54,988 nt of DNA from a phage (GCA_021081985.1 GCA_021081985.1_3639.2); one strand, 5' to 3'. Shown: positions 5,313 through 21,713, counted from the stretch's first letter. Numbers and translations: made by a program. The notes: generated by a model from the letters alone, not told the origin.

Positions 5313-5778
5313 ACTCCCCCAACTCTTGTTTTAACTCAATATTTTCTTTTAACAGGGCATTCACAAAAGCTAATATGTGAACAAGGGAACTCTGACAACC
5401 ATTAGCATATAGTTCAGCTTCTACACGCTTTTTCAATTCTGCGCCATAGCCGTCTAAGCTGTCGAGATGCTCTTTAATTTTATCATAAGCATCTCGTTTT
5501 CCTCTTAGCTCATTAATAATGTACAGAACATTATCTGGGCTTGCGGTGGCAATGTAACTGGCATCGTAGTCATTTTGCCAGTGAGATAAATTCCCTGTTC
5601 CCTCATGTCTCTTTGCCGGACCCATTTTAGGATCTGTGATGAAAACAGTTTCTATTTTATTATCATTTTGGAATGCTACCATTGCATGTCCATGGCTATC
5701 TATCCACCAGTGCCCTCTGGTGGCTTTCTTTGCCAGTTTCTCAATATCTCCGATTAAGATATCAGCTTTTGTCTGCAT
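5305..5778 (-). CDS. Hypothetical protein
   Basis: 157-aa ORF with protein-like composition; no confident motif. Confidence 0.4.
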   Translation of the reverse strand: MQTKADILIGDIEKLAKKATRGHWWIDSHGHAMVAFQNDNKIETVFITDPKMGPAKRHEGTGNLSHWQNDYDASYIATASPDNVLYIINELRGKRDAYDKIKEHLDSLDGYGAELKKRVEAELYANGCQSSLVHILAFVNALLKENIELKQELGEYE

Positions 5779-7053: not shown

Positions 7054-8358
7054 CTACTTACCAGGGAAAGTCTCTTCATAAAACTTAACAAGACGTTGAT
7101 CAACGATAATATCTTTATCCCTGATCCTACGTAATAACCTTAATCCTTTTGCACTTGTTGCTCTGCTAAAAGCCACGTATGCCATGCCTGGTGCAAAAGT
7201 CCCATTGCCAAAGTCAACATTAACTTCCGGTAATGTTAATCCTTGTGCTTTGTGTATTGTAACAGCCCACCCAAGACGAATCGGCAAAGCCCTGTACTCA
7301 CCAATGATAATCTTCTCAATTTCTTCAGTTATTGTACCATCTGGGTTTTTCACCTTTATGGGGTTATACTCAACATTTTCCCACACATAAGGTTCTACGT
7401 CAACAATATCCCCATTTTCAAGACGGACTCTAACACTGTATCTACGTAGTTCAACAATCTCTCCACGGGAACCATTCACATAACTTGGTTCCTCCAGTCC
7501 TTTAGGGTCATTGACAGTAATCATCACCTGCGCCCCCTCTTTCAGGTACAACTCTTCCGGCACAGGTGTCTGGTTAAATTGCCCTGTCTTTTTTGCCTTG
7601 TAAACTGTTGGGATTCCAGGTATTGCATCAAAACGTTTTTTGTTTATTTTGTCTGCTGCTGCGTTTGTTGAGGTTATTGTTATAGCATCCAATGGTTTTC
7701 CCATGTTGTAGCAATAAGTATTCATAAACTCAACAATCTCTGGAATACGCTCTCCCTTGCGAAGGCAATTAAGAAGTGTTGAAAAATGAACACTACTTTG
7801 CCTGTAGATTTTATCAAGAAATACAGGATATGGGTTCAATTCTTTCCATGTTTTAGAAAAGCAACAAAGTTCTGTGTCGTGGAACTGGTAGTATATCTCT
7901 TTTTCTTCACTTTTTAAAACAGGTGGATTCTGTAAGAAATCCCCGAACATACACACCTGCAAACCACCGAAAGGCTCTTTGGGTTTTTTACGTGCCAGAC
8001 GACATTTCATGTCCATTTCCCAGAGTTTGTCTGCCCTGAACATACTTATCTCTTCAATAATAAGAATCTTCAGTGCTTTACTTTTAAGCAACTTCTTAGC
8101 CTTTGCCTTTATTTCCTCTGCATCTTTTTTAGTGGACACGCCTAATGAAAGTCCGAAAGCTCTGTGTGCTGTCATACCATCCACATTAATGGCAGCAGCC
8201 CCTGTAGGGGCCACTGTCAAAACTGAGCCTGCGTATAAGGATTGGATAGTTTTTATAGTATGACTCTTTCCAGCACCTGCATAACCACTGATAAACACAT
8301 TCTCACCTGACATTATAGCGCCGAGAGCATCTTCAACGCCAACCCCGTATTGAGACAT
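7054..8358 (-). CDS. dda: Dda-like SF1B DNA helicase (RecD/Pif1 family)
   Basis: 434 aa; Walker A GYAGAGKSH near the N-terminus, Walker-B-like LIIEEISM, C-terminal GWAVTIHKAQGLT and AYVAFSRAT motifs typical of Dda/RecD helicases. Confidence 0.7.
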   Translation of the reverse strand: MSQYGVGVEDALGAIMSGENVFISGYAGAGKSHTIKTIQSLYAGSVLTVAPTGAAAINVDGMTAHRAFGLSLGVSTKKDAEEIKAKAKKLLKSKALKILIIEEISMFRADKLWEMDMKCRLARKKPKEPFGGLQVCMFGDFLQNPPVLKSEEKEIYYQFHDTELCCFSKTWKELNPYPVFLDKIYRQSSVHFSTLLNCLRKGERIPEIVEFMNTYCYNMGKPLDAITITSTNAAADKINKKRFDAIPGIPTVYKAKKTGQFNQTPVPEELYLKEGAQVMITVNDPKGLEEPSYVNGSRGEIVELRRYSVRVRLENGDIVDVEPYVWENVEYNPIKVKNPDGTITEEIEKIIIGEYRALPIRLGWAVTIHKAQGLTLPEVNVDFGNGTFAPGMAYVAFSRATSAKGLRLLRRIRDKDIIVDQRLVKFYEETFPGK

Positions 8359-9371: not shown

Positions 9372-11343
9372 TAAATTTACGATACTCTAGCATCTCTGGA
9401 GTATTGAAATGCCTAATATTAATGTATTTTAACAATGGGTAGCGATCTTTCTTAATTTGTAGCAGCTTTTTACCAATTCTCTTCTTGGCCTCTATCATCC
9501 ATAATGCTTTCTCACGGCTATCTTCGTAGCCAGGAACTGAACAATAACTGGGCATGTTTACCTTCATCTCCCATTTTGGGAAACTGGCTACCATCACGCC
9601 GAAGTAGCTAAGTTCTTTAACAATGTTATGATACTCATGGTCTTTCCCTACTTCTTGGTATAAATGATATTCAAGAAGGTTAGTTTTTGCAAGAGCATGA
9701 ATATCCTCCTCAGTTATAACCCGTGCCTCATCTGGCAGCCAACTTGATCTGTTTAAAGGCACAATATATAACTTACCAACCACACCGAGATTCTTGAGAA
9801 ATGTTGGTGGTTGCTTTCTCCAAGATGTTCTAAGATTGGAAACGTATCCTAACGGGCATAATCCTTTCACCTGCCCACCCCAGTATACCATAGCCGCCTC
9901 AATATCTTCAAATTGAGCACGGGAAATACGGGTTACATCTACGGAGCCATCTTGGTTGATTATCCAAACTTTATGACCTGGTTCGTAATAACCATAGCCA
10001 CCATACTTTTTATCTGCTTTTTGCACTGGTCGTTTTTCAAGTTCAGATAACTTGAAAATCATCCCTTCAAAGAATTTATCACTGTATAAGGACAGAGCGT
10101 AATCAGCATCGGTTATAAATGATCTCTTACCAAACTTCTCTGCGAGCCAGTTACATTTAGAGCGCACATACTTGTGATCATCATTGTAAACCAGTGGATG
10201 ACCATTCATCAACTCTGCGTATGAATATCTCTCATCCTTACCACGGCGTGAGCCTTCGCCACCATATGTTTCACAGTAATCTATGTAAGAACCATCAGTA
10301 TAATTCTTGAACTTATTTGCAATAAAAGCAGCACCATATTTTGTAGCGAAATAACCACCAACATATTTCATATGTTCAAGAACTGCTTTTAAAGTTGGCA
10401 GATCGCTTAATTCTTTTGTAATTTCTTCTCCACGAAGTCGGATAGCTTTCGTCACAAAACTTTCAAGTTTATCACGGAATCCTCCGTCATTCTTTCCTTC
10501 TACTGTCCATTCTCGGCCTGGGTCTACATTACAATCCCCAATAGGGATAGATACCGTCATCATGGGCAGTTCTTTACGAGTCGAGAGATAATCAGAGAGA
10601 TATGGTTGTTGCCCCATGATGACAACACTATCAGCGTTTCTCGACATGCTACTATACATCTCAAGAACCCAGCCAGTCTCCTCATCCTCATAACGATACT
10701 GAACAGGATAAGTACGATCTTCAATCTGCGTTTTAACAAAAGGATCATTAATGATATATGGAAATTTAGCATAGCGAAGGCATTTTACAATAGCCAGACG
10801 ATAAGCTCCTGTTTCCCAAGTGTTTACGTTAAATTTAACCTCTACACCATTCTCCTCTGTTGTTTCACAAGAAAATAAAGGCACAACCTCTGGTATTCCG
10901 CTGTTTTTGTGAACAGAGTATGTTGTTTTCACTCCATCTTTAACAGAAACAACTGTGAACATATCTGTTACTGCAAGAGGTGCTTTTGACCCAATACCTT
11001 TCGCGCCAATCAGATCATTACTGTTTCTTTTTGTGGACTCACCAATCATCATGAATGTACGTGTTACCATCTCATGATCCATACCTAACCCTGTATCCTT
11101 AACAGAATACCAAGGTTCCAAGTCTGTTGGTGAGTGGATGATGATGGGTTTATCAGAACACCCTGCCTCTGTATGAGCATCTACAGCGTTGAAGAGAGGC
11201 TCTCGTACTGCTGCTAAAGTTTTATCTTTATAAATTCCATCGATAAGAATACTGAAAGTCTCAGGATTCATTGCAATTGATGCTTGGTATCTTTCTACGT
11301 TCCCAGTTACCTGGACTTTGTTGTCAGATCTTTGAATAATCAT
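9343..11343 (-). CDS. rIIA: rIIA-like protein with GHKL/HATPase_c ATP-binding domain
   Basis: 666 aa; N-box REPLFNAVDA, G1 box DTGLGMD and G2 box GAKGIGSKA of the GHKL ATPase fold, as in phage rIIA; followed by the rIIB-like gene. Confidence 0.6.
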   Translation of the reverse strand: MIIQRSDNKVQVTGNVERYQASIAMNPETFSILIDGIYKDKTLAAVREPLFNAVDAHTEAGCSDKPIIIHSPTDLEPWYSVKDTGLGMDHEMVTRTFMMIGESTKRNSNDLIGAKGIGSKAPLAVTDMFTVVSVKDGVKTTYSVHKNSGIPEVVPLFSCETTEENGVEVKFNVNTWETGAYRLAIVKCLRYAKFPYIINDPFVKTQIEDRTYPVQYRYEDEETGWVLEMYSSMSRNADSVVIMGQQPYLSDYLSTRKELPMMTVSIPIGDCNVDPGREWTVEGKNDGGFRDKLESFVTKAIRLRGEEITKELSDLPTLKAVLEHMKYVGGYFATKYGAAFIANKFKNYTDGSYIDYCETYGGEGSRRGKDERYSYAELMNGHPLVYNDDHKYVRSKCNWLAEKFGKRSFITDADYALSLYSDKFFEGMIFKLSELEKRPVQKADKKYGGYGYYEPGHKVWIINQDGSVDVTRISRAQFEDIEAAMVYWGGQVKGLCPLGYVSNLRTSWRKQPPTFLKNLGVVGKLYIVPLNRSSWLPDEARVITEEDIHALAKTNLLEYHLYQEVGKDHEYHNIVKELSYFGVMVASFPKWEMKVNMPSYCSVPGYEDSREKALWMIEAKKRIGKKLLQIKKDRYPLLKYINIRHFNTPEMLEYRKFIDNKGEKGE

Positions 11344-11363
11344 TCAATACCTCTATGAACTAA

Positions 11364-11882
11364 TTATGCGTCAGGATGCTTGTAAAAAATATGATTCCCA
11401 ACCTTCACTGTTTTCACCATAACTTTTGCCCAAGATGGCCTAACAGTAGTTGCATGATAGTACGTTGCTGATTTTGTGTAGTCAAGAGCTTTGTATAAAC
11501 TTTTGTGGTCTTTATGCAATCTTATCAATATTTTAGCATAAAATTTAGCTCTTAACCATCTATCCTTTTCATAGACTTTAAAGGATTGCCCACCGAATGT
11601 CCAAGAGAATTGCCCTCGCTGATAAACTATTTTCTTGATAGTATGCGGGAAATTCTTGTCATCTTTTCTATTCAATGTGACAAAAGCGACACCCATCATT
11701 CCATAATCACCTTCTCCTCTTCCCTCTTTATACAAGTTACAGGCAAGAATATTAAGCTCTGTATCATTCTTCTTGCAAATGTGAAGAACTTGGGGCTTCT
11801 TTGCACTTTCTTTGGCTAGAACAGGGGTAATAGACAGAGAAAGTGCACAGCAAACTGCAAATAATAAAGATCTTATTTTCAA
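11364..11882 (-). CDS. Cell wall hydrolase, SleB/CwlJ (Hydrolase_2) family, with N-terminal signal peptide; proposed TTG start
   Basis: LYKEGRGEG, GVAFVTLNR and RGQFSW motifs match the SleB-family signature. With a TTG start the N-terminus is MKIRSLLFAVCCALSLSITPVLA, preceded by GGAG; the ORF-track start at 11987 would run through the upstream intergenic hairpin. Confidence 0.6.
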   Translation of the reverse strand: MKIRSLLFAVCCALSLSITPVLAKESAKKPQVLHICKKNDTELNILACNLYKEGRGEGDYGMMGVAFVTLNRKDDKNFPHTIKKIVYQRGQFSWTFGGQSFKVYEKDRWLRAKFYAKILIRLHKDHKSLYKALDYTKSATYYHATTVRPSWAKVMVKTVKVGNHIFYKHPDA

Positions 11883-13474: not shown

Positions 13475-13847
13475 TACTATCTTCCTTATTAATAAAGGTC
13501 ACACCAAGAGTGGCCTGGGCAAGAAGTTTCGTGATCTCCTGGCTCCATACAGGACTGGAGATAAAATGTTGTAATTGGAGGCTACCTAAGCGATAGGCGC
13601 TGTTCATCGTAATAGCATAGATTTCTCCATCGTGCATAATCATGCTTTCGACAACAGAAGTCCTGATATTAGAACCACTAAATCCACGCTTTTTGAGGTC
13701 ATCTGCTAAGTATCCGCAGATACAACGCACATCTTTTGTATAACCAAAACCGAAATAGGGTTCAGCACCAAACAGGATACCAGCGTATCTCTTCCCACAG
13801 ACATAGGTATCTTTAGATACGCCTGTTACAGATTTACTTTCCATCAT
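13461..13847 (-). CDS. Hypothetical protein
   Basis: 128-aa ORF; no motif recognised. Confidence 0.35.
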   Translation of the reverse strand: MMESKSVTGVSKDTYVCGKRYAGILFGAEPYFGFGYTKDVRCICGYLADDLKKRGFSGSNIRTSVVESMIMHDGEIYAITMNSAYRLGSLQLQHFISSPVWSQEITKLLAQATLGVTFINKEDSNASN

Positions 13848-15329: not shown

Positions 15330-16538
15330 TTAATTTAAAATTGCATCTACATCTTTTGCAAAGTTCTTGTGATATTCAGTAATAATCTGCATGACGACAG
15401 GATACTTCTTAAGTAACTTCGCTGGCAGTCTGTCACGAAGGCCATCTAACAAAATACCCTTCCCTGTGGAACTGTCATTAATAAACGTCATGAAGACAGA
15501 TGATACAAAATCGCGGTTGGAATGAGCATCATCTTTACCAAAGTTATCATACAGATATTGCAAGAAATTGGCTGAGAAGTCAATAACCTGATCATCTGTG
15601 TAGTTGGTATTCTTCATAGCCTTACGTAGCCAGATGCAACCTTGTGATCCTAGCGTCCACAATACATCAGAGCTATCAGAGCCAGTGTGTTCCTTAATTG
15701 AACCATCCATTACTTTCTCAATGGGGACCATATCAGCAACGCGAGTATGGTAATACCATAACTCTTTCATTAACGGCCCACCAATACACCCTTGCAAAGC
15801 AGCCATTGCAAGACGGGAAGTAAGATCACCATCCTCATACGCATACAGAATATCACTTGCAGTAACCCAAGTTCGTGGTGTGGCATATGCAGGACTGTTA
15901 ATCTCATACATGGCCTCGAAGTTTTCCAGTTTATCGGGATTGGCTTGGATAAAACCAATTACTGATGGATGCACATTTTTACGCAACGCATAATCCTGCA
16001 TCCACACAGAGGCATCGTAATCAAGTTCCACAACAATAAAACGGTTAGCCAAAGGAGCTTCCATCATGGTAACTGCTGTACCATCACCAGGACGGTTCCC
16101 TGCCGCTGCAAAAACTGCACCTTTTGGAAAGGTGTACTTACCAATTTTATGATCCAAAACAATCTGGAAAGCTACTTTCTGTAAGTAGTTATCAGCATGT
16201 AAAAGTTCATCAAGGAAAATAATACCTTCCCAATCTGGGTCTTCTGGCCAGAAATCTGGTAGCGCATAGACTGTACGTGTTTTTCCATTGTCGTCTGTTA
16301 CAGGAATCTGTACACCTACTACGTCTGTCGGATCTTTATCCGCAAGACGAAAATCAACGAGATTATCATCTCGTTCACCAAACATCTCATTGGCAACTTG
16401 CTTCATGACTTGACTCTTACCAAGCCCAGCACCACCAAACATCATAAGTGCTTTGTTTGCCTTCTTACAAAATTTCATGAGGCTTGGAATATCACGAAGT
16501 GTAACACGATGATCTTCAAAAATATTTCTACTAGACAT
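15330..16538 (-). CDS. AAA+ ATPase, MoxR/AAA_5-like
   Basis: 402 aa; Walker A GGAGLGKS, Walker B IIFLDELLHA, sensor AAAGNRPGDG; the architecture usually partnered with VWA proteins. Confidence 0.7.
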   Translation of the reverse strand: MSSRNIFEDHRVTLRDIPSLMKFCKKANKALMMFGGAGLGKSQVMKQVANEMFGERDDNLVDFRLADKDPTDVVGVQIPVTDDNGKTRTVYALPDFWPEDPDWEGIIFLDELLHADNYLQKVAFQIVLDHKIGKYTFPKGAVFAAAGNRPGDGTAVTMMEAPLANRFIVVELDYDASVWMQDYALRKNVHPSVIGFIQANPDKLENFEAMYEINSPAYATPRTWVTASDILYAYEDGDLTSRLAMAALQGCIGGPLMKELWYYHTRVADMVPIEKVMDGSIKEHTGSDSSDVLWTLGSQGCIWLRKAMKNTNYTDDQVIDFSANFLQYLYDNFGKDDAHSNRDFVSSVFMTFINDSSTGKGILLDGLRDRLPAKLLKKYPVVMQIITEYHKNFAKDVDAILN

Positions 16539-16773
16539 TCGTCTCGTTCCTTAAATCGTTCTTCTGCTCAAGATAACTTTCAATGATACTGTCTATATCT
16601 GCTGATTCAATATCAGCATACAGATTTGTAATACTTGATGCAAGGTCTTTGGCAGAAAAATTGTCTACTCTTTCTGCACCAAAAACTAAAAACCATTGTC
16701 GTCGTGTCATCCTCGCTCTAACAACGGTTTTTAAATACTCCGCTCTCTCTGAAAAATCAAGAGGTTTTACCAC
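16531..16773 (-). CDS. Hypothetical protein
   Basis: 80-aa ORF. Confidence 0.3.
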   Translation of the reverse strand: MVKPLDFSERAEYLKTVVRARMTRRQWFLVFGAERVDNFSAKDLASSITNLYADIESADIDSIIESYLEQKNDLRNETNV

Positions 16774-17123
16774 TTATCCACCCAAACTCTGTTCTCATCA
16801 CACCAGTCGTAGAACTCGTTCAAAGCTAGATTGAACTGCTGTAGAGGACTCACGATAAGGTTGGGGTTATCTTCTTTGCTACAGATTTCCAAGTATTCTT
16901 CATATGTGAGAATATGCTGCATTTCTTCAAGAATATCATACAACCACCCATCGAAGTCAGCATTCTCTTCATCAGTTTGCTTTGGTAAAAGTCGTTTTAC
17001 TCTTTTTACAAGCATGTCCACAAACAGGTGAATATTATCATCTGCCCAAGGCTCTACCTTACCTTCTACGGGATTACCTTTCCAGATATCACGTAAATCA
17101 AGTCGATGTTTCCACTGTGCCAT
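16767..17123 (-). CDS. Hypothetical protein
   Basis: 118-aa ORF, Trp-rich. Confidence 0.35.
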   Translation of the reverse strand: MAQWKHRLDLRDIWKGNPVEGKVEPWADDNIHLFVDMLVKRVKRLLPKQTDEENADFDGWLYDILEEMQHILTYEEYLEICSKEDNPNLIVSPLQQFNLALNEFYDWCDENRVWVDKW

Positions 17124-17124
17124 T

Positions 17125-17319
17125 TTATAACTCCTTAACAGATTCTAAATCAAGATATTCATCACCACCCACTCGTTTACCGTCTTTCTTACGGTATTTT
17201 GCCTTGCTTTCAAATGCTACCCAATAAGCACCTTCATCTTTTAACTTGTCTTCCCATACCCAACCGAACTGCTTTTTCCTAATGGTTCCTTTGTGGGTAT
17301 ATTGTTGTTTACAATACAT
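17125..17319 (-). CDS. Hypothetical small protein
   Basis: 64-aa basic ORF. Confidence 0.3.
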   Translation of the reverse strand: MYCKQQYTHKGTIRKKQFGWVWEDKLKDEGAYWVAFESKAKYRKKDGKRVGGDEYLDLESVKEL

Positions 17320-17320
17320 C

Positions 17321-17536
17321 CTAATCCTCCCATTTTATCCATAAAGGGTATTCTGCAACATGCACTTTCTTACCCTTTTTGTTAATAAAAGTATACTCAA
17401 CAAACTTTGCTATGTAAAACCTATTGTAATCCTCTGTACCTTTAACAGGACAGTCTGTTTTCCTTATCTCCACCCATTCTCTGTGGATCACCGCTTTGTT
17501 CTTTGGATCAAATGGATGTGGTTGATAAACATTCAT
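17321..17536 (-). CDS. Hypothetical small protein
   Basis: 71-aa ORF. Confidence 0.3.
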   Translation of the reverse strand: MNVYQPHPFDPKNKAVIHREWVEIRKTDCPVKGTEDYNRFYIAKFVEYTFINKKGKKVHVAEYPLWIKWED

Positions 17537-18033
17537 TATTTCCCCTCGAATCTTTTTCTTGCATCAGCAAGTTTAAGATGCATTTCATGGTATTTCTTTA
17601 ACCTTGCCAAATCCTTATCTGATAAGGATTTAAGACGTTTTACGTCCATATTGTCTTTTAAATCAGCGAGTTTTACACGAATCGCATCATAATTAGTACA
17701 GATGCCCTCAATGTACTCTTCTTCAGTCAGGCTCTGTTTCTTTGTTAGCAGAAGAACTGCATCTTTTACTCTGTTAGTGAACCCTAACATTACCAAATCG
17801 TAAGCTGTAACTTTAGTATCCTCAAGGATATCGTGAAGGACACCGATTGCCATTAGCTGTAAGTCATCATTACCAAGTTCATGCATCACCCTTAATGGGT
17901 GAAGAATGTAGGGCATTCCACCACGATCTTTTTGCTTAAGATGGTTTTCAGAGGCCAATTTTATAGCTAAAGCCAACTCCTGATGGGGTCTTAAATCTTG
18001 CATGTTACTGGGGACAGACTTCGATTGTGCCAT
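17536..18033 (-). CDS. HD-domain hydrolase, Mesh1/SpoT-like small alarmone hydrolase
   Basis: 165 aa; PYILHPLRV, VLHDILEDT and VKLADLKDN are arranged like the His/Asp metal ligands of the RelA/SpoT hydrolase domain. Confidence 0.65.
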   Translation of the reverse strand: MAQSKSVPSNMQDLRPHQELALAIKLASENHLKQKDRGGMPYILHPLRVMHELGNDDLQLMAIGVLHDILEDTKVTAYDLVMLGFTNRVKDAVLLLTKKQSLTEEEYIEGICTNYDAIRVKLADLKDNMDVKRLKSLSDKDLARLKKYHEMHLKLADARKRFEGK

Positions 18034-18851
18034 TCATATGCCTCTTGCATGTTAAAGGGTTTTATACCAATATTATCAAAATCTACAAGAGAATCAAGAA
18101 AAAATTCTCCTTTGTACCCAGCCATTTCTATCATTAAGCGTTCCTCTTGGGTAGGGATCTCCCCCAAAATAAGCTCTTTTAGCTCTTTTTCTACAACACG
18201 ATGATACATTACTTCCTGGGTATTACACACCAAGTAGTAGTGCGACTTCTTATTCTCTGCGTTTGGCGTGTTGGTTATCTTAATTCCAGCATGGTCTACA
18301 TAATCATACATCTTTGTTTGGTAACGCATTCCATAACAACCTACCAGGGAAAAGGGTCCACAACTGGAATTAATCTCCCTGATGTGGAGAATATCTGGGT
18401 TTGTTCTGACATAGGAAGCCTTTATGGAAAACATATTACCATCCCAATGCCCCAATTGGGACAAAACAGACAGGAATTTTTGTGTTCGTGCAGACAATGA
18501 TCTTGCTAAACACATTCCATAATTAAAGCCTTGGAAAGAGATTGTTATTTGCCCACAAGTAATATCATAGCTTGAAAACTCATGCGTTAAGTTTACGCTT
18601 GCCATGTAAGCACGCTCGTCAGCTTCAACATAATATTTCCAGTAGCATTTCCTATCCCGAGTATCAAAACACATAAGCACAGCATGTTTTATGAGTTCTA
18701 TTAAAGGGTTTGGTTCATGGTGGCGACTTTCAACTTCCCTTATAATGGCTTCACGGAGTACATTAAAATCTATTTTCATAGATTTTGTGTGATGCAGGTA
18801 GGCATCAAAGTAAGAAGAAATGTTTTCGTCAGGTATCTTTGCCATGGTCAA
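17991..18851 (-). CDS. Hypothetical protein
   Basis: 286-aa ORF upstream of the HD hydrolase; no motif recognised. Confidence 0.4.
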   Translation of the reverse strand: MTMAKIPDENISSYFDAYLHHTKSMKIDFNVLREAIIREVESRHHEPNPLIELIKHAVLMCFDTRDRKCYWKYYVEADERAYMASVNLTHEFSSYDITCGQITISFQGFNYGMCLARSLSARTQKFLSVLSQLGHWDGNMFSIKASYVRTNPDILHIREINSSCGPFSLVGCYGMRYQTKMYDYVDHAGIKITNTPNAENKKSHYYLVCNTQEVMYHRVVEKELKELILGEIPTQEERLMIEMAGYKGEFFLDSLVDFDNIGIKPFNMQEAYEWHNRSLSPVTCKI

Positions 18852-18917
18852 ACTCCAAAAATATTTTCATTGGTTATGAGGAATGTACAGAACTAAAAAA
18901 CAAAAGTCAACACTTGA

Positions 18918-18947
18918 CAAACTGAAAATTTGTGAGATACTACGAAT
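18918..18947 (+). promoter_or_regulatory. Putative promoter TTGACA-17-GATACT in the divergent intergenic region
   Basis: Lies between the minus-strand block ending at 18851 and the plus-strand gene starting at 18975. Confidence 0.35.
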
Positions 18948-18974
18948 ACAAGTTAAGCGACAGAGATATTCTGT

Positions 18975-19772
18975 ATGGACTGGAATAAAGAGTTTACAAC
19001 CAAAGAGATAAGGTATCTCAAAACACGACTCTTTTTCAAAAAGAGGAATACCAAAGCGAGAGGTATAGAGTTCAATCTGACAGAAGATGACTGGTTTATG
19101 ATGGGCAACGGATTACTTGGGAAAGGTGTTTGTGATTACACAGGCCTACCTTTTTCTGCGACACCTAATGACCCCCTCTACCCGTCTGTTGAACGAATAG
19201 ATGACAAAAAAGGGTATGTTCGTGGAAACGTTTGTGTAGTCGGTAAGAGAGCAAACCAGTTAAAAGATTTTCTTGTAGACAAAAAGAAAGCTCTAACGAT
19301 TGTAGATCCACTCGACATGGATATCGTCCAAGGAATGATGTTAAATATGTCAAAGGATCACTTGGAAAAGTTAAAACTTAAATACATACCTACGGAAACA
19401 GATATGAAAGAGACAGAGAACGTAATTATTGATGAGCAGGTTGAAGAGATGAAAGAAAAATCTCTTCCTGACGATGTTGAAATTGCACTTGCATACGCAA
19501 ACTACTGTAAAACATTTGCGGAAGCAGGTATGAATGTTAGCGTTACGTATGCACAATTTAAGGCTAAATATTCAAGAAACACCTGTTCTCTAACAGGGGA
19601 GAAGTTAACAAAAACACCAAAACCTATTCTCATTATGGATTTAGATCTTGGGTTCGCAAAAGACAACTTTATTATTGTTTCTGAAAAGATGGAAACAGCA
19701 TTAACACAACTCATGATCAATACGAAAATGAGTTTACCAAAAATCACAGCTATGCTGAATAAGGTGGTTTAA
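18975..19772 (+). CDS. HNH/AP2-like putative homing endonuclease with a duplicated module
   Basis: 265 aa; two copies of a C-x2-TG ... ID ... G-Y/F ... N module (CDYTGLPF...ERIDDKKGYVRGNV and CSLTGEKL...MDLDLGFAKDNF). Residues are degenerate relative to canonical HNH. Confidence 0.4.
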   Translation: MDWNKEFTTKEIRYLKTRLFFKKRNTKARGIEFNLTEDDWFMMGNGLLGKGVCDYTGLPFSATPNDPLYPSVERIDDKKGYVRGNVCVVGKRANQLKDFLVDKKKALTIVDPLDMDIVQGMMLNMSKDHLEKLKLKYIPTETDMKETENVIIDEQVEEMKEKSLPDDVEIALAYANYCKTFAEAGMNVSVTYAQFKAKYSRNTCSLTGEKLTKTPKPILIMDLDLGFAKDNFIIVSEKMETALTQLMINTKMSLPKITAMLNKVV

Positions 19773-19960
19773 TGAAAGATTTTCTACCAAAACCGTGTCC
19801 ATTTTGTAAAAATGATGCACTTTTGCTTAAACAGAAACGCTCTGGGCAAACAATATTTCACTACATTTACTGCCAGAAATGTGGAACATCTGGGCCACAG
19901 GCTCTGAGTGAGCCTACTGCTGTAAGTTGGTGGAATGTCGGTAATAAAGAGGTAAAATAA
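19772..19960 (+). CDS. Lar-family restriction alleviation protein (zinc ribbon)
   Basis: 62 aa; PCPFCKND ... CQKCG zinc ribbon and C-terminal AVSWWN fit the Lar family pattern. Confidence 0.55.
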   Translation: MKDFLPKPCPFCKNDALLLKQKRSGQTIFHYIYCQKCGTSGPQALSEPTAVSWWNVGNKEVK

Positions 19961-19961
19961 T

Positions 19962-20141
19962 ATGTTTGAAGAGATTCTTGGAAGGCCAGCTACCGATCAA
20001 GAAGCCCAGATGATTGAATCTGGAAAGAAACCAAATTTTAAAGTTGGTGATAGGGTTCGTTATAAAAATGCCAGAAACGTTATAACTTCTGTAGAGGCTA
20101 TAGTATTATTTATGTTCCCACACCAACCAACTGGAGGATAA
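19962..20141 (+). CDS. Hypothetical small protein (59 aa, not in the ORF track)
   Basis: ATG at 19962 preceded by AAAGAGGTAAAATAAT; translated as MFEEILGRPATDQEAQMIESGKKPNFKVGDRVRYKNARN... Confidence 0.3.
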   Translation: MFEEILGRPATDQEAQMIESGKKPNFKVGDRVRYKNARNVITSVEAIVLFMFPHQPTGG

Positions 20142-20276
20142 GTTCCGGTATGGGGAGCCAGATTAACTGGCGGTAATAATTTTATGCCGCTTGATACCAT
20201 AGAATTATTTACAAGTAAAAAATAACAAGTATAATAGGTTGTCGAAAGATAGCCTATTTTTGTATGGAGCATAATT

Positions 20277-21713
20277 ATGCAAAAAGACGAATATGAAATG
20301 ATTGCCAAGTTAGAGAAGGATGCTGTAAAAGTTATCCAATCGGCACGAATAGCTCTTTTAAAGTACAGACCATTTTACGGGACTTTGTTAAGTTCTCTAC
20401 CCTTAGTTGCTAACTGGAAATGGTTGCCAACAGCAGCGACTGATCACAAAAACCTCTACTTCAACCCTGAGTTTATTATGGGTATGCCTGAAGAAAGGAA
20501 GAAGAAGGTTTTTGAGCGTGTGGATAATCACCCCACAATGACACAACAAGAAAAAGATGACTATAAAGACTATGTGAACGTATTTTATCGTAAGAAAACA
20601 CCCAAAGAGGTTGTTGTTATTCTTATGCACGAGCTACGTCATATTACTAACGATCATTTATCCCGTGGAAAAGCATTTGATTCTAAAACCTACAACACAG
20701 CAGCAGATCATTATATTAACACGGATTTAGTGGTGTCTGATCTTGGGCCACGCTCCAGCCAGATGTGTTTCTTCCCAATGGGGAAACAGACAACCTTTGA
20801 CAAAGGTAAAGAGTTTGGGTTTATGGCTTATTGCTACTGTGATTTTAATTTCCACGGTAAGACAGCGGAGGAGATTTACAGTCTCATAAACAAAGGCCAA
20901 CCGTCTGTTGGTAAACCTATGGGCACACACATAGGTGATTATGATCAAGACAGCAATATCCTAGGATATGAAGATCCTCACCCAGTGCCAAGCCAAGCAG
21001 AAAAAGATGATAATATGTCGTGGTCATCTGGTCTTATCGAGGCAGCGATGGAAGCAGCGGGAGGAGAGGGGCCGAAAGAGGTGCGTGACGTTATTGCAAG
21101 AATGCGTAAACCACACATAAATTATCTTCAGATAATCAAACAGCGTATGCTTTCTCGGATCAAGTCTAACCTGACATACAGGAAACCATCTCGTAGGTCT
21201 GGATCTATGACACAGGCACTTCGGCAGTATGGAGCTATTGAAAAAAAACAGCATATTGTTTTACCAGGAAGGGAGTACGATAATACTATAGATATAGTTA
21301 TTGGCTTCGATGTGTCTGGATCAATTTCGAAGGCGAATTTAGACAAAATCTTCGGAGAAATTGTAGGATTATGCCAGCTTTACCGCGTTTTTCGCGTGAC
21401 ATTGTTCTGTTGGTCAACAAAAGTCGGAGAGGTTAAAGTTTATACACATGATAATATCAAGGAAATGCTTGATTATAAAGTAAATTCTACGGGTGGGACA
21501 CTTGCAGCATCGGCTTTTGAGTATATTGAAAATAACATTTTTGATGCAAAAGACGTTATTATTTTTACAGACGGGTATATAGAGGATTTAAGCCACAAGA
21601 AAAAAGATTGGGGACGCAAGTGGGATATTCTTTGGGTTATTTGTGGTCGCGGAAATAATAAATTTGTACCACCTTTCGGAAGGGCTGTAAATTTAGATGA
21701 ACACGCAAAATAA
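20277..21713 (+). CDS. VWA-domain protein with N-terminal putative HExxH metallopeptidase domain (DUF2201-like)
   Basis: 478 aa; HELRH zinc-binding-like motif in the N-terminal half; MIDAS motif D-x-S-G-S in VIGFDVSGSIS in the C-terminal half. Confidence 0.65.
   Translation: MQKDEYEMIAKLEKDAVKVIQSARIALLKYRPFYGTLLSSLPLVANWKWLPTAATDHKNLYFNPEFIMGMPEERKKKVFERVDNHPTMTQQEKDDYKDYVNVFYRKKTPKEVVVILMHELRHITNDHLSRGKAFDSKTYNTAADHYINTDLVVSDLGPRSSQMCFFPMGKQTTFDKGKEFGFMAYCYCDFNFHGKTAEEIYSLINKGQPSVGKPMGTHIGDYDQDSNILGYEDPHPVPSQAEKDDNMSWSSGLIEAAMEAAGGEGPKEVRDVIARMRKPHINYLQIIKQRMLSRIKSNLTYRKPSRRSGSMTQALRQYGAIEKKQHIVLPGREYDNTIDIVIGFDVSGSISKANLDKIFGEIVGLCQLYRVFRVTLFCWSTKVGEVKVYTHDNIKEMLDYKVNSTGGTLAASAFEYIENNIFDAKDVIIFTDGYIEDLSHKKKDWGRKWDILWVICGRGNNKFVPPFGRAVNLDEHAK

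Follow-up and report, generated by a model that had tools for sequence, protein, structure and literature searches.

The stretch of phage DNA considered here (GCA_021081985.1_3639.2, 54,988 nucleotides, hereafter the window) encodes, between positions 15,330 and 21,713, a MoxR-class AAA+ ATPase and a protein that combines an N-terminal zincin-like domain, bearing an HExxH motif, with a C-terminal von Willebrand factor A (VWA) domain, bearing a metal ion-dependent adhesion site (MIDAS). This 6.4-kb region of a Vequintavirinae phage shares 95% nucleotide identity with Escherichia phage Av-05 (genus Avunavirus) and 94% with four further E. coli phage records. The ATPase and VWA genes lie head to head on opposite strands, divergently oriented, with a gap of 3,738 bp (16539-20276). 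A first-pass annotation had placed the ATPase gene on the minus strand and the HExxH/VWA gene on the plus strand about 3.7 kb apart, and both open reading frames (ORFs) are indeed found there (Table 1). It had listed an HD hydrolase gene, a hypothetical gene, an HNH-like gene and a Lar-like gene in the interval; all four are present, but nine ORFs rather than four are counted between the pair, six on the minus strand and three on the plus strand. The GC skew passes from negative to positive at about 18-19 kb, at the strand switch. The pair lies in a non-structural, early/middle neighbourhood that includes rII, RNA ligase, macro domain, HD hydrolase, Nudix and endonuclease V genes.

Table 1. 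Features of the ATPase/VWA region, in positions counted from the first letter of the window.
Feature	Position	Strand	Basis
MoxR-class (AAA_5-like) AAA+ ATPase, 402 aa	15330..16538	-	ORF, motifs, homologues
Terminator-like hairpin with U-run, directly past the ATPase stop codon	15308..15325	-	Sequence scan, folding
Six genes 5' of the ATPase, putative leftward unit (ORFs of 80, 118, 64 and 71 aa, HD hydrolase, 286-aa ORF)	16531..18851	-	ORFs, PHROG
SpoT-type HD hydrolase, 165 aa	17536-18033	-	TIGR00691, E 7e-14; PHROG 990
ORF, 286 aa	17991-18851	-	ORF call
Divergent intergenic region (strand switch), promoter-like sites in both directions	18852..18974	.	Scan, GC skew
'HNH-like'/Srd-like protein, 265 aa	18975-19772	+	PHROG
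Lar-like protein, 62 aa	19772-19960	+	Pfam Lar_restr_allev, 36.9 bits (above threshold); PHROG
Small ORF, 59 aa, truncated	19962-20141	+	PHROG 10489; comparison with Av-05
Sigma70-like promoter match and overlapping hairpin with T-run, 19 bp before the VWA start codon	20208..20258	+	Consensus scan, folding
Zincin-like (HExxH) and VWA (MIDAS) protein, 478 aa, N4 gp25 homologue	20277..21713	+	Pfam, motifs

The 402-aa protein matches PHROG 1297 ('ATPase') with an E value of 4e-105. Its homologues at 32-35% identity contain AAA_5 and AAA_3 domains; among homologues P0177-P0205, which are 26-38% identical to it (most of them 32-37%), PF07728 is present and PF07726 occurs in most. A profile of 25 homologues finds midasin AAA_5 modules as its best sequence-profile match in the PDB (E 5e-18). 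Walker A is G35-x-x-G38-x-G40-K41-S42, Walker B is D110-E111 and sensor 1 is N148; the named residues of these motifs, together with R149, R166 and R222, are invariant in the 25 homologues. Individual arginines among these would be the arginine finger and sensor 2. A long C-terminal helical domain extends beyond the AAA+ core, and the predicted fold, which has a pre-sensor-1 hairpin and a beta-hairpin inserted in helix 2, is nearest to known MoxR members. On the basis of transitive homology, the midasin profile match and the fold, the protein is a MoxR-class AAA+ ATPase. The AAA_5 assignment of the first-pass annotation holds for the homologues, the window ATPase itself falling below every Pfam AAA threshold. 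Searches of the PDB with the ATPase or the VWA protein as a single sequence gave nothing useful, and profiles were required. Neither protein matches the PADLOC defence-system models, and NCBIfam has no meaningful match for either.

In the 478-aa protein, the two Pfam domains expected from the first-pass annotation both exceed their curated gathering scores. The N-terminal DUF2201_N ('putative metallopeptidase') covers residues 108-308 with 70.5 bits (cut-off 23.2, E 2.4e-19), and the C-terminal DUF2201 ('VWA-like') covers residues 340-474 with 41 bits (cut-off 26.4, E 2.5e-10). The protein was aligned with 27 homologues (28 sequences, 23-75% identity). In the motif HExxH-x4-H ... A-x-D-x-x-x-N, residues H122, H127, D144 and N148 are invariant, while H118 and E119 are kept in at least 90% of the sequences. 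The MIDAS motif is complete, with D345-x-S347-G-S349, T408 and D432 all invariant, and the midasin MIDAS domain is among the matches to the VWA fold. Fold searches were dominated by VWA matches in both runs; for the zincin part, the profile gives marginal PDB matches only, to minigluzincin MJ1213 (E 0.12) and BepA (E 0.6). The family comprises 13,214 representatives when clustered at 50% identity (E <= 1e-30). The Vequintavirinae proteins have an insertion of ~40 residues before HExxH, which the bacterial proteins do not have.

Two homologues of the VWA protein, P0236 (794 aa) and P0264 (733 aa), carry independent inteins, each of which interrupts the zincin domain. One of them (Hint plus LAGLIDADG) is inserted directly after HEVLH, and the other lies inside the conserved N-M-A|C-D-x-x-x-N, equivalent to A142-D144-N148 in the window. 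Inteins usually home to active sites. Since these inteins interrupt the protein exactly there, the HExxH and A-x-D-x-x-x-N motifs are probably functional and constitute the catalytic core of the zincin domain. That the domain is an active protease is about as likely as not. P0236 and P0264 were also considered as ATPase-VWA fusions of the Rosetta-stone type; this was rejected, as they are intein-bearing zincin-VWA proteins and hhalign against the ATPase profile is negative.

The distribution of the pair was followed by tblastn against about 50,000 phage genomes with both proteins as queries. The ATPase is found in 830 phage records and the VWA protein in 599, including rV5-like, N4-like and 121Q-like jumbo phages. 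Eighty IMG/VR loci with an ATPase homologue were also scanned with hidden Markov models for both proteins. Outside the rV5-type lineage, the VWA gene lies downstream of the ATPase gene on one strand in every one of the 46 IMG/VR loci in which both genes are complete; the gap has a median of about 100 bp and is 172 bp or less in 40 of them. Where a locus ends at the contig edge, the start of the VWA gene is seen in the same place downstream of the ATPase. In N4-like phages and in 121Q the two genes are adjacent by coordinates. A bacterial sample, made up of the best 80 genome matches to the bacterial-type ATPase (L084-L163), has the VWA gene directly downstream of the ATPase gene on one strand in 79 cases. 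These loci come mostly from sulfur-oxidising or chemolithoautotrophic Beta- and Gammaproteobacteria (Thiobacillus, Sedimenticola, Thiohalomonas, bivalve symbionts). In two chromosomal contexts of the bacterial pair the ATPase->VWA order is surrounded by housekeeping genes and no phage genes. The remark of the first-pass annotation that MoxR and VWA genes usually adjoin is thus borne out in phages and bacteria alike.

In phage loci the genes that recur beside the pair encode a wHTH protein, a clamp-loader-like AAA protein and proteins of no known kind. In bacteria the only recurrent neighbours are an unannotated protein of ~374 aa after the VWA gene (22 of 80 loci) and a Nudix gene. The analysis of conserved neighbours in phage and bacterial loci gave no pointer to a substrate. 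In one phage locus (L039) the ATPase and VWA genes are separated by an ORF of 183 aa (11174-11725, +). Over its final 100 residues it shares 35% identity with the C-terminus of the adjoining ATPase (E 9e-20), and it is a stand-alone copy of the C-terminal helical domain; locus L046 has an equal gap of ~610 bp.

The window genes are orthologues of a widespread module, in which a MoxR-class AAA+ ATPase gene is followed on one strand by a zincin(HExxH)-VWA(MIDAS) gene. Its members include N4 gp24/gp25, the jumbo-phage MoxR/peptidase-vWA pair and the bacterial AAA_5 + DUF2201 operon. The window ATPase is 27% identical to the 'N4 gp24-like protein' of LUZ7 (E 2e-17), and the N4-like metallopeptidase/vWA proteins are 21-24% identical to the window VWA protein over about 95% of its length. 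The N4 pair resembles that of the window in its two-domain partner protein and its non-structural context; however, identity is low and the N4-like genes are adjacent and co-directional, not on opposite strands 3.7 kb apart. N4 gp24 (AAA ATPase) and gp25 (vWFA) are among the 14 core genes of N4-like phages, where they are middle genes of unknown function (PMC4193335, PMC2784036). Iyer et al. (2021, PMC7824862) described a MoxR ATPase together with a vWA protein having an N-terminal metallopeptidase in group 2.2 jumbo phages. Genes 563/564 of 121Q have the same architecture as the window pair (24% identity for the ATPase, 27% for the VWA protein), but are adjacent and both on the plus strand (274327-275346 and 275760-277127). 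The bacterial AAA_5 + DUF2201_N/DUF2201 operon ('predicted metal-dependent peptidase') has the same two proteins in the same order as the module; it is chromosomal and not viral, and its proteins have about 350 and 400-430 aa.

More distant systems share only part of this design. In CbbQ/CbbO, a Rubisco activase, and NorQ/NorD, which serves iron insertion into NO reductase, CbbO and NorD are without a peptidase domain. The metalloenzyme substrates of these two systems are known and encoded nearby, whereas no such gene is evident in the window, and identity is 14-15%. Midasin/Rea1 is like the window pair in coupling an AAA_5 motor to a MIDAS domain, and it pulls factors off a complex in ribosome assembly; unlike the window pair, it is a single giant eukaryotic polypeptide with six fused AAA modules and no protease domain. 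The AAA+/VWA metal chelatases (CobS/CobT, BchI/BchD) were also considered and rejected: neither the CobT/Mg_chelatase families nor a nearby cofactor pathway was found.

A different layout is characteristic of the lineage of the window itself. In all 15 rV5-type loci (the window and L002-L015) the two genes are on opposite strands, 3.4-5.1 kb apart; Av-05 itself (L001) has the same split layout and is excluded from that count. These loci include PVP-SE1 (Seunavirus) as well as Raoultella Ro1-like (Mydovirus-type), rV5-like (Vequintavirus) and Erwinia pEp_SNUABM_01-like (Henunavirus-type) phages, and the split is seen only in this rV5 / PVP-SE1 / Mydo / Henuna / Av-05 lineage. Certrevirus (L018, which is phiTE, and L020), of the same subfamily, has kept the adjacent order. 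In phage A73, of the same subfamily too, the ATPase gene A73_51 (38% identical) lies 80 bp upstream of the VWA gene A73_50, and the two come third and fourth in a rightward operon, which begins at a strand switch 1.2 kb away. The comparison with related phages that the first-pass annotation had proposed thus finds the genes adjacent elsewhere. Its idea of an ancestrally adjacent pair agrees with an ATPase->VWA order that is near universal outside the split lineage.

The gene order of the Certrevirus-like locus L016 is a(-) b(-) c(-) ... HD(+) ... ATPase(+) VWA(+), where a, b and c are the left markers. In the window the same markers are a(-) 7063-8358, b(-) 11367-11876 and c(-) 13554-13796, followed by ATPase(-), HD(-) and VWA(+) at the positions of Table 1. 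The flanks are collinear between the two, and the HD-to-ATPase block alone is reversed, both in order and in orientation. Because only this block is reversed and the flanks are unchanged, the difference is of the kind that a single inversion leaves behind. One breakpoint is at the ATPase/VWA junction; the other is bracketed between the macro/o128 homologues and HD, and is most simply placed at the old strand switch. The inversion is the derived state, because N4-like, jumbo and uncultured phages as well as bacteria all have the adjacent order. That the pair was split in this way is very probable. No description of the inversion was found in the searchable literature.

The event would have been one inversion, in an ancestor shared by the Vequintavirus, Seunavirus, Mydovirus, Henunavirus and Avunavirus lineages. 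The inverted block would start with the first genes of a rightward early operon, include the HD hydrolase and end with the ATPase, with breakpoints in the short ATPase/VWA intergenic junction and near the old strand-switch point. As an outcome, the ATPase gene would have come to close a leftward unit. The VWA gene would have been left on the rightward arm, now preceded by a few small genes specific to the lineage and by a promoter-like site of its own.

The first-pass annotation had offered mobile elements as a cause of the separation. Such elements, homing endonuclease genes or morons, would have inserted between an adjacent pair and driven its members apart. The ATPase/VWA junction is in fact a recurrent landing site for homing endonucleases in other lineages. 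phiTE has a free-standing HNH_3 homing endonuclease gene there (L018 11226-11738, +), and two loci of uncultured phages have SegE-like GIY-YIG + NUMOD3 genes on the strand opposite to the pair (L043 9044-9706, -; L053 4716-5369, -); L056 may have one too, as its gap of ~860 bp is equal to theirs. In addition, inteins occur inside the VWA gene in some homologues, the Lar-like gene is the only intervening gene specific to the Av-05 lineage, and an endonuclease double-strand break could, as a conjecture, have set off the rearrangement. However, insertion cannot yield opposite strands, and the junction insertions seen elsewhere add just 0.5-0.9 kb. The minus-strand block holds the HD hydrolase gene, which in Certrevirus-like loci too precedes the ATPase on one strand and was therefore present before the split. 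As HD is the only traceable one among them and an ancestral upstream neighbour of the ATPase, the minus-strand intervening genes are taken to have come along with the inverted block and not to be insertions. The proposal does not survive the opposite strands, the reversed HD-to-ATPase block and the prior presence of HD beside the ATPase. As the sole cause of the split, insertion is largely refuted by the orientation data, and we consider it highly improbable.

The 'HNH-like' gene, the supposed mobile element of the interval, also argues against insertion. This 265-aa product has no Pfam HNH family match even at E <= 1, and its PHROG labels are mixed (HNH endonuclease, Srd anti-sigma factor, decoy of host sigma70, endonuclease VII). 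The gene holds a fixed place by the strand switch in six of six split-lineage loci, which represent all five genus-level lineages (tblastn, 38-64% identity), and because of this fixed position it is no recent invader. Descent from the homing endonuclease (HNH_3) of the phiTE junction was considered and rejected, as there is no similarity between the two. The product may be a transcription-takeover factor and not a nuclease. In rV5-like loci the gene appears as two separate matches (L007 6487-6795 and 7075-7437). The plus-strand genes in 18975..20141 match PHROG 3118, 4592 and 1400. The small ORF at the end of this series has 59 aa in the window vs. 87 aa in Av-05; clustered substitutions have introduced a TAA stop (20139-20141), by which the gene is truncated. 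The HD hydrolase belongs to the SpoT/RelA type, accompanies the ATPase in both split and adjacent Vequintavirinae lineages, and is probably a phage (p)ppGpp hydrolase.

Sequence signals are consistent with the inversion having assigned the ATPase and VWA genes to different transcription units. At 16531-16538, the start codon of the ATPase gene overlaps with the stop of the ORF before it. The hairpin with a U-run past the ATPase stop codon (-13.2 kcal/mol, z -2.2) is weak, as six of 200 shuffles fold as well, and may mark the end of the leftward transcription unit. At the strand switch there are promoter-like sites in both directions, TTGACA-16-GATACT with TG at 18914-18941 (+) and another at 18910-18882 (-). 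The sequence TTTACA-16-TATAAT at 20208-20235, before the VWA gene, is the best sigma70-like match in the 7.5-kb region, with 11 of 12 consensus positions, and a hairpin with a T-run overlaps it (20233-20258, +; -13.3 kcal/mol, z -4.3). The equivalent hairpin of PVP-SE1 has -15.7 kcal/mol and z -5.1, and the -35/-10/hairpin layout before the VWA gene is kept in the PVP-SE1 and L012 lineages despite diverged sequence. The hairpin structure (in L002 at 5680-5703, -) is common to Avunavirus, Seunavirus, Henunavirus-type L012 and rV5-like loci, with stem sequences that differ. This suggests that the VWA gene is served by a promoter of its own and shielded from transcription that comes from upstream, and that the inverted block is a complete leftward unit. 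The alternative of separate regulation raised by the first-pass annotation is accordingly plausible: promoter- and terminator-like sites do put the genes in separate units, as far as consensus matches go.

Such units also bear on the possibility that the two genes were uncoupled after the inversion, so that each now acts alone or with another partner and their co-occurrence is inherited. The hairpin after the ATPase gene and the promoter-like site and hairpin before the VWA gene would fit this view. The usual adjacency implies that co-expression matters, and it is precisely adjacency that the split lineage has lost. Furthermore, Bacillus phage 0305phi8-36 has a MoxR/vWA pair, possibly of another subfamily, in a region that can be deleted, although at the cost of a growth defect (PMC3357382). 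Nevertheless, both genes are retained in all 15 split-lineage genomes, with ATPase, HExxH and MIDAS columns that are invariant or nearly so. The two proteins diverge at equal rates, with mean identities in the split clade of 60% for the ATPase and 58% for the VWA protein and a correlation of r = 0.95. No further gene of the VWA or MoxR kind was noticed in the region, and both genes still flank one divergent control region. Uncoupling therefore seems to us quite unlikely. Because both proteins are intact and always kept together, they most likely still work together in trans, and we take it as fairly probable that they continue to act as a MoxR/VWA couple.

How such a couple would work can be proposed from better-known systems. 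In NorQ/NorD, the NorQ hexamer binds one NorD, the VWA domain of which plugs the pore of the ring; the MIDAS domain and surface carboxylates of the substrate are both needed, which was proposed to hold generally among MoxR/VWA couples (PMC9976466). After the example of CbbQ/CbbO and NorQ/NorD, the window ATPase would form a hexameric ring with the VWA domain docked on it, and a target protein would be gripped through one of its acidic residues, bound at the MIDAS site. Remodelling of this protein would be powered by ATP hydrolysis, and its cleavage would fall to the fused zincin domain. By this analogy, the pair is most likely an ATP-driven remodelling and proteolysis complex.

The target of this complex could be a virion component, in which case the pair would be a virion-assembly chaperone and maturation protease, not a host-directed factor. 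MoxR/VWA systems in general act as chaperones in the maturation of large complexes (PMC9976466). A role in virion assembly was put forward for the homologous pair of jumbo phages by Iyer et al., who cite p618/p892 of Acidianus two-tailed virus (ATV), a MoxR/VWA pair for which such a role has been shown (PMC7824862). However, the neighbours of the window pair (rII, RNA ligase, macro domain, HD hydrolase, Nudix, endonuclease V) are early/middle and non-structural. N4 gp24/25 are middle genes, and their homologues are not among the virion proteins of roseophages RPP1 and RLP1; in RPP1 virions, products of neighbouring genes were found (PMC4193335). The phAPEC6 virion proteome paper mentions neither protein, which is absence of evidence only, and the phiKZ transposon screen paper mentions neither as well. 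The same two-gene module also resides in bacterial chromosomes with no phage genes nearby. Because of the non-structural gene context and the occurrence in ordinary bacterial chromosomes, we favour a cellular or non-virion target, and the virion-assembly role appears unlikely.

As a whole, an ancestral module split by inversion, with partners that still act in trans, is likely to be the best explanation of the locus. Several points weigh against it, the virion-assembly proposal for the jumbo-phage pair among them. The window ATPase reaches no Pfam AAA model, its sole match being bpMoxR with 16.5 bits vs. a cut-off of 27. The exact breakpoints are not resolvable, since few recognisable markers are common to Certrevirus-like and rV5-like genomes. 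The correlated divergence of the two proteins may just mirror overall genome divergence. Promoter-like sites number 25 in the region vs. 23 +/- 5 in shuffled sequence, which is not above chance and makes the model of separate transcription units a weak one. Finally, no experiment on any member of the subfamily was found, which leaves the complex, its target and its protease activity as proposals. Searches of the literature on DUF2201, COG3864, the rV5 MoxR ATPase and phage MoxR/VWA pairs since 2021 likewise yielded no functional study, in line with the statement of the first-pass annotation that no function has been established for such pairs in phages.

A bolder conjecture is that the inversion is not neutral. 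With the motor in one unit and the protease/adaptor in another, on the two sides of the early control region, the phages could then control when an ATP-driven, MIDAS-targeted protease is assembled; its substrate would be a host protein, cleaved in takeover or counter-defence. This seems to us very doubtful. If it were true, the bacterial homologues would be the cellular version of the same targeted-proteolysis machine, and N4 gp24/gp25 and thousands of 'DUF2201' operons would make up an uncharacterised class of AAA+-coupled site-specific proteases.

The names given to the pair and its neighbours in public annotation are unreliable. The zincin-VWA protein is labelled 'HNH endonuclease' (phrog_1314, RefSeq Av05_00170), 'DNA repair ATPase' or 'anti-sigma factor', and the ATPase homologue of Salmonella phage SSBI34 is labelled 'ribosomal protein uS19'. 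Several adjoining small ORFs are called 'tail protein' or 'internal head protein' without visible support (RefSeq NC_025830, PHROG). The present analysis corrects a widespread misannotation, since RefSeq and PHROGs both name the protease/VWA gene 'HNH endonuclease'.

For the window itself the finding is modest: the pair is known, the phage lineage is published, its genomes are public, and an ordinary inversion is a routine result of comparative genomics. The module is nevertheless very common, with more than 13,000 zincin-VWA clusters at 50% identity, and is found among the core genes of N4-like phages, in jumbo phages, in many bacteria and in rV5-like therapeutic phage candidates. In the rV5-type lineage its genes appear to tolerate unlinking into what seem to be separate transcription units, while both remain under constraint. 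The split lineage is thus a natural system for handling or expressing each partner separately.

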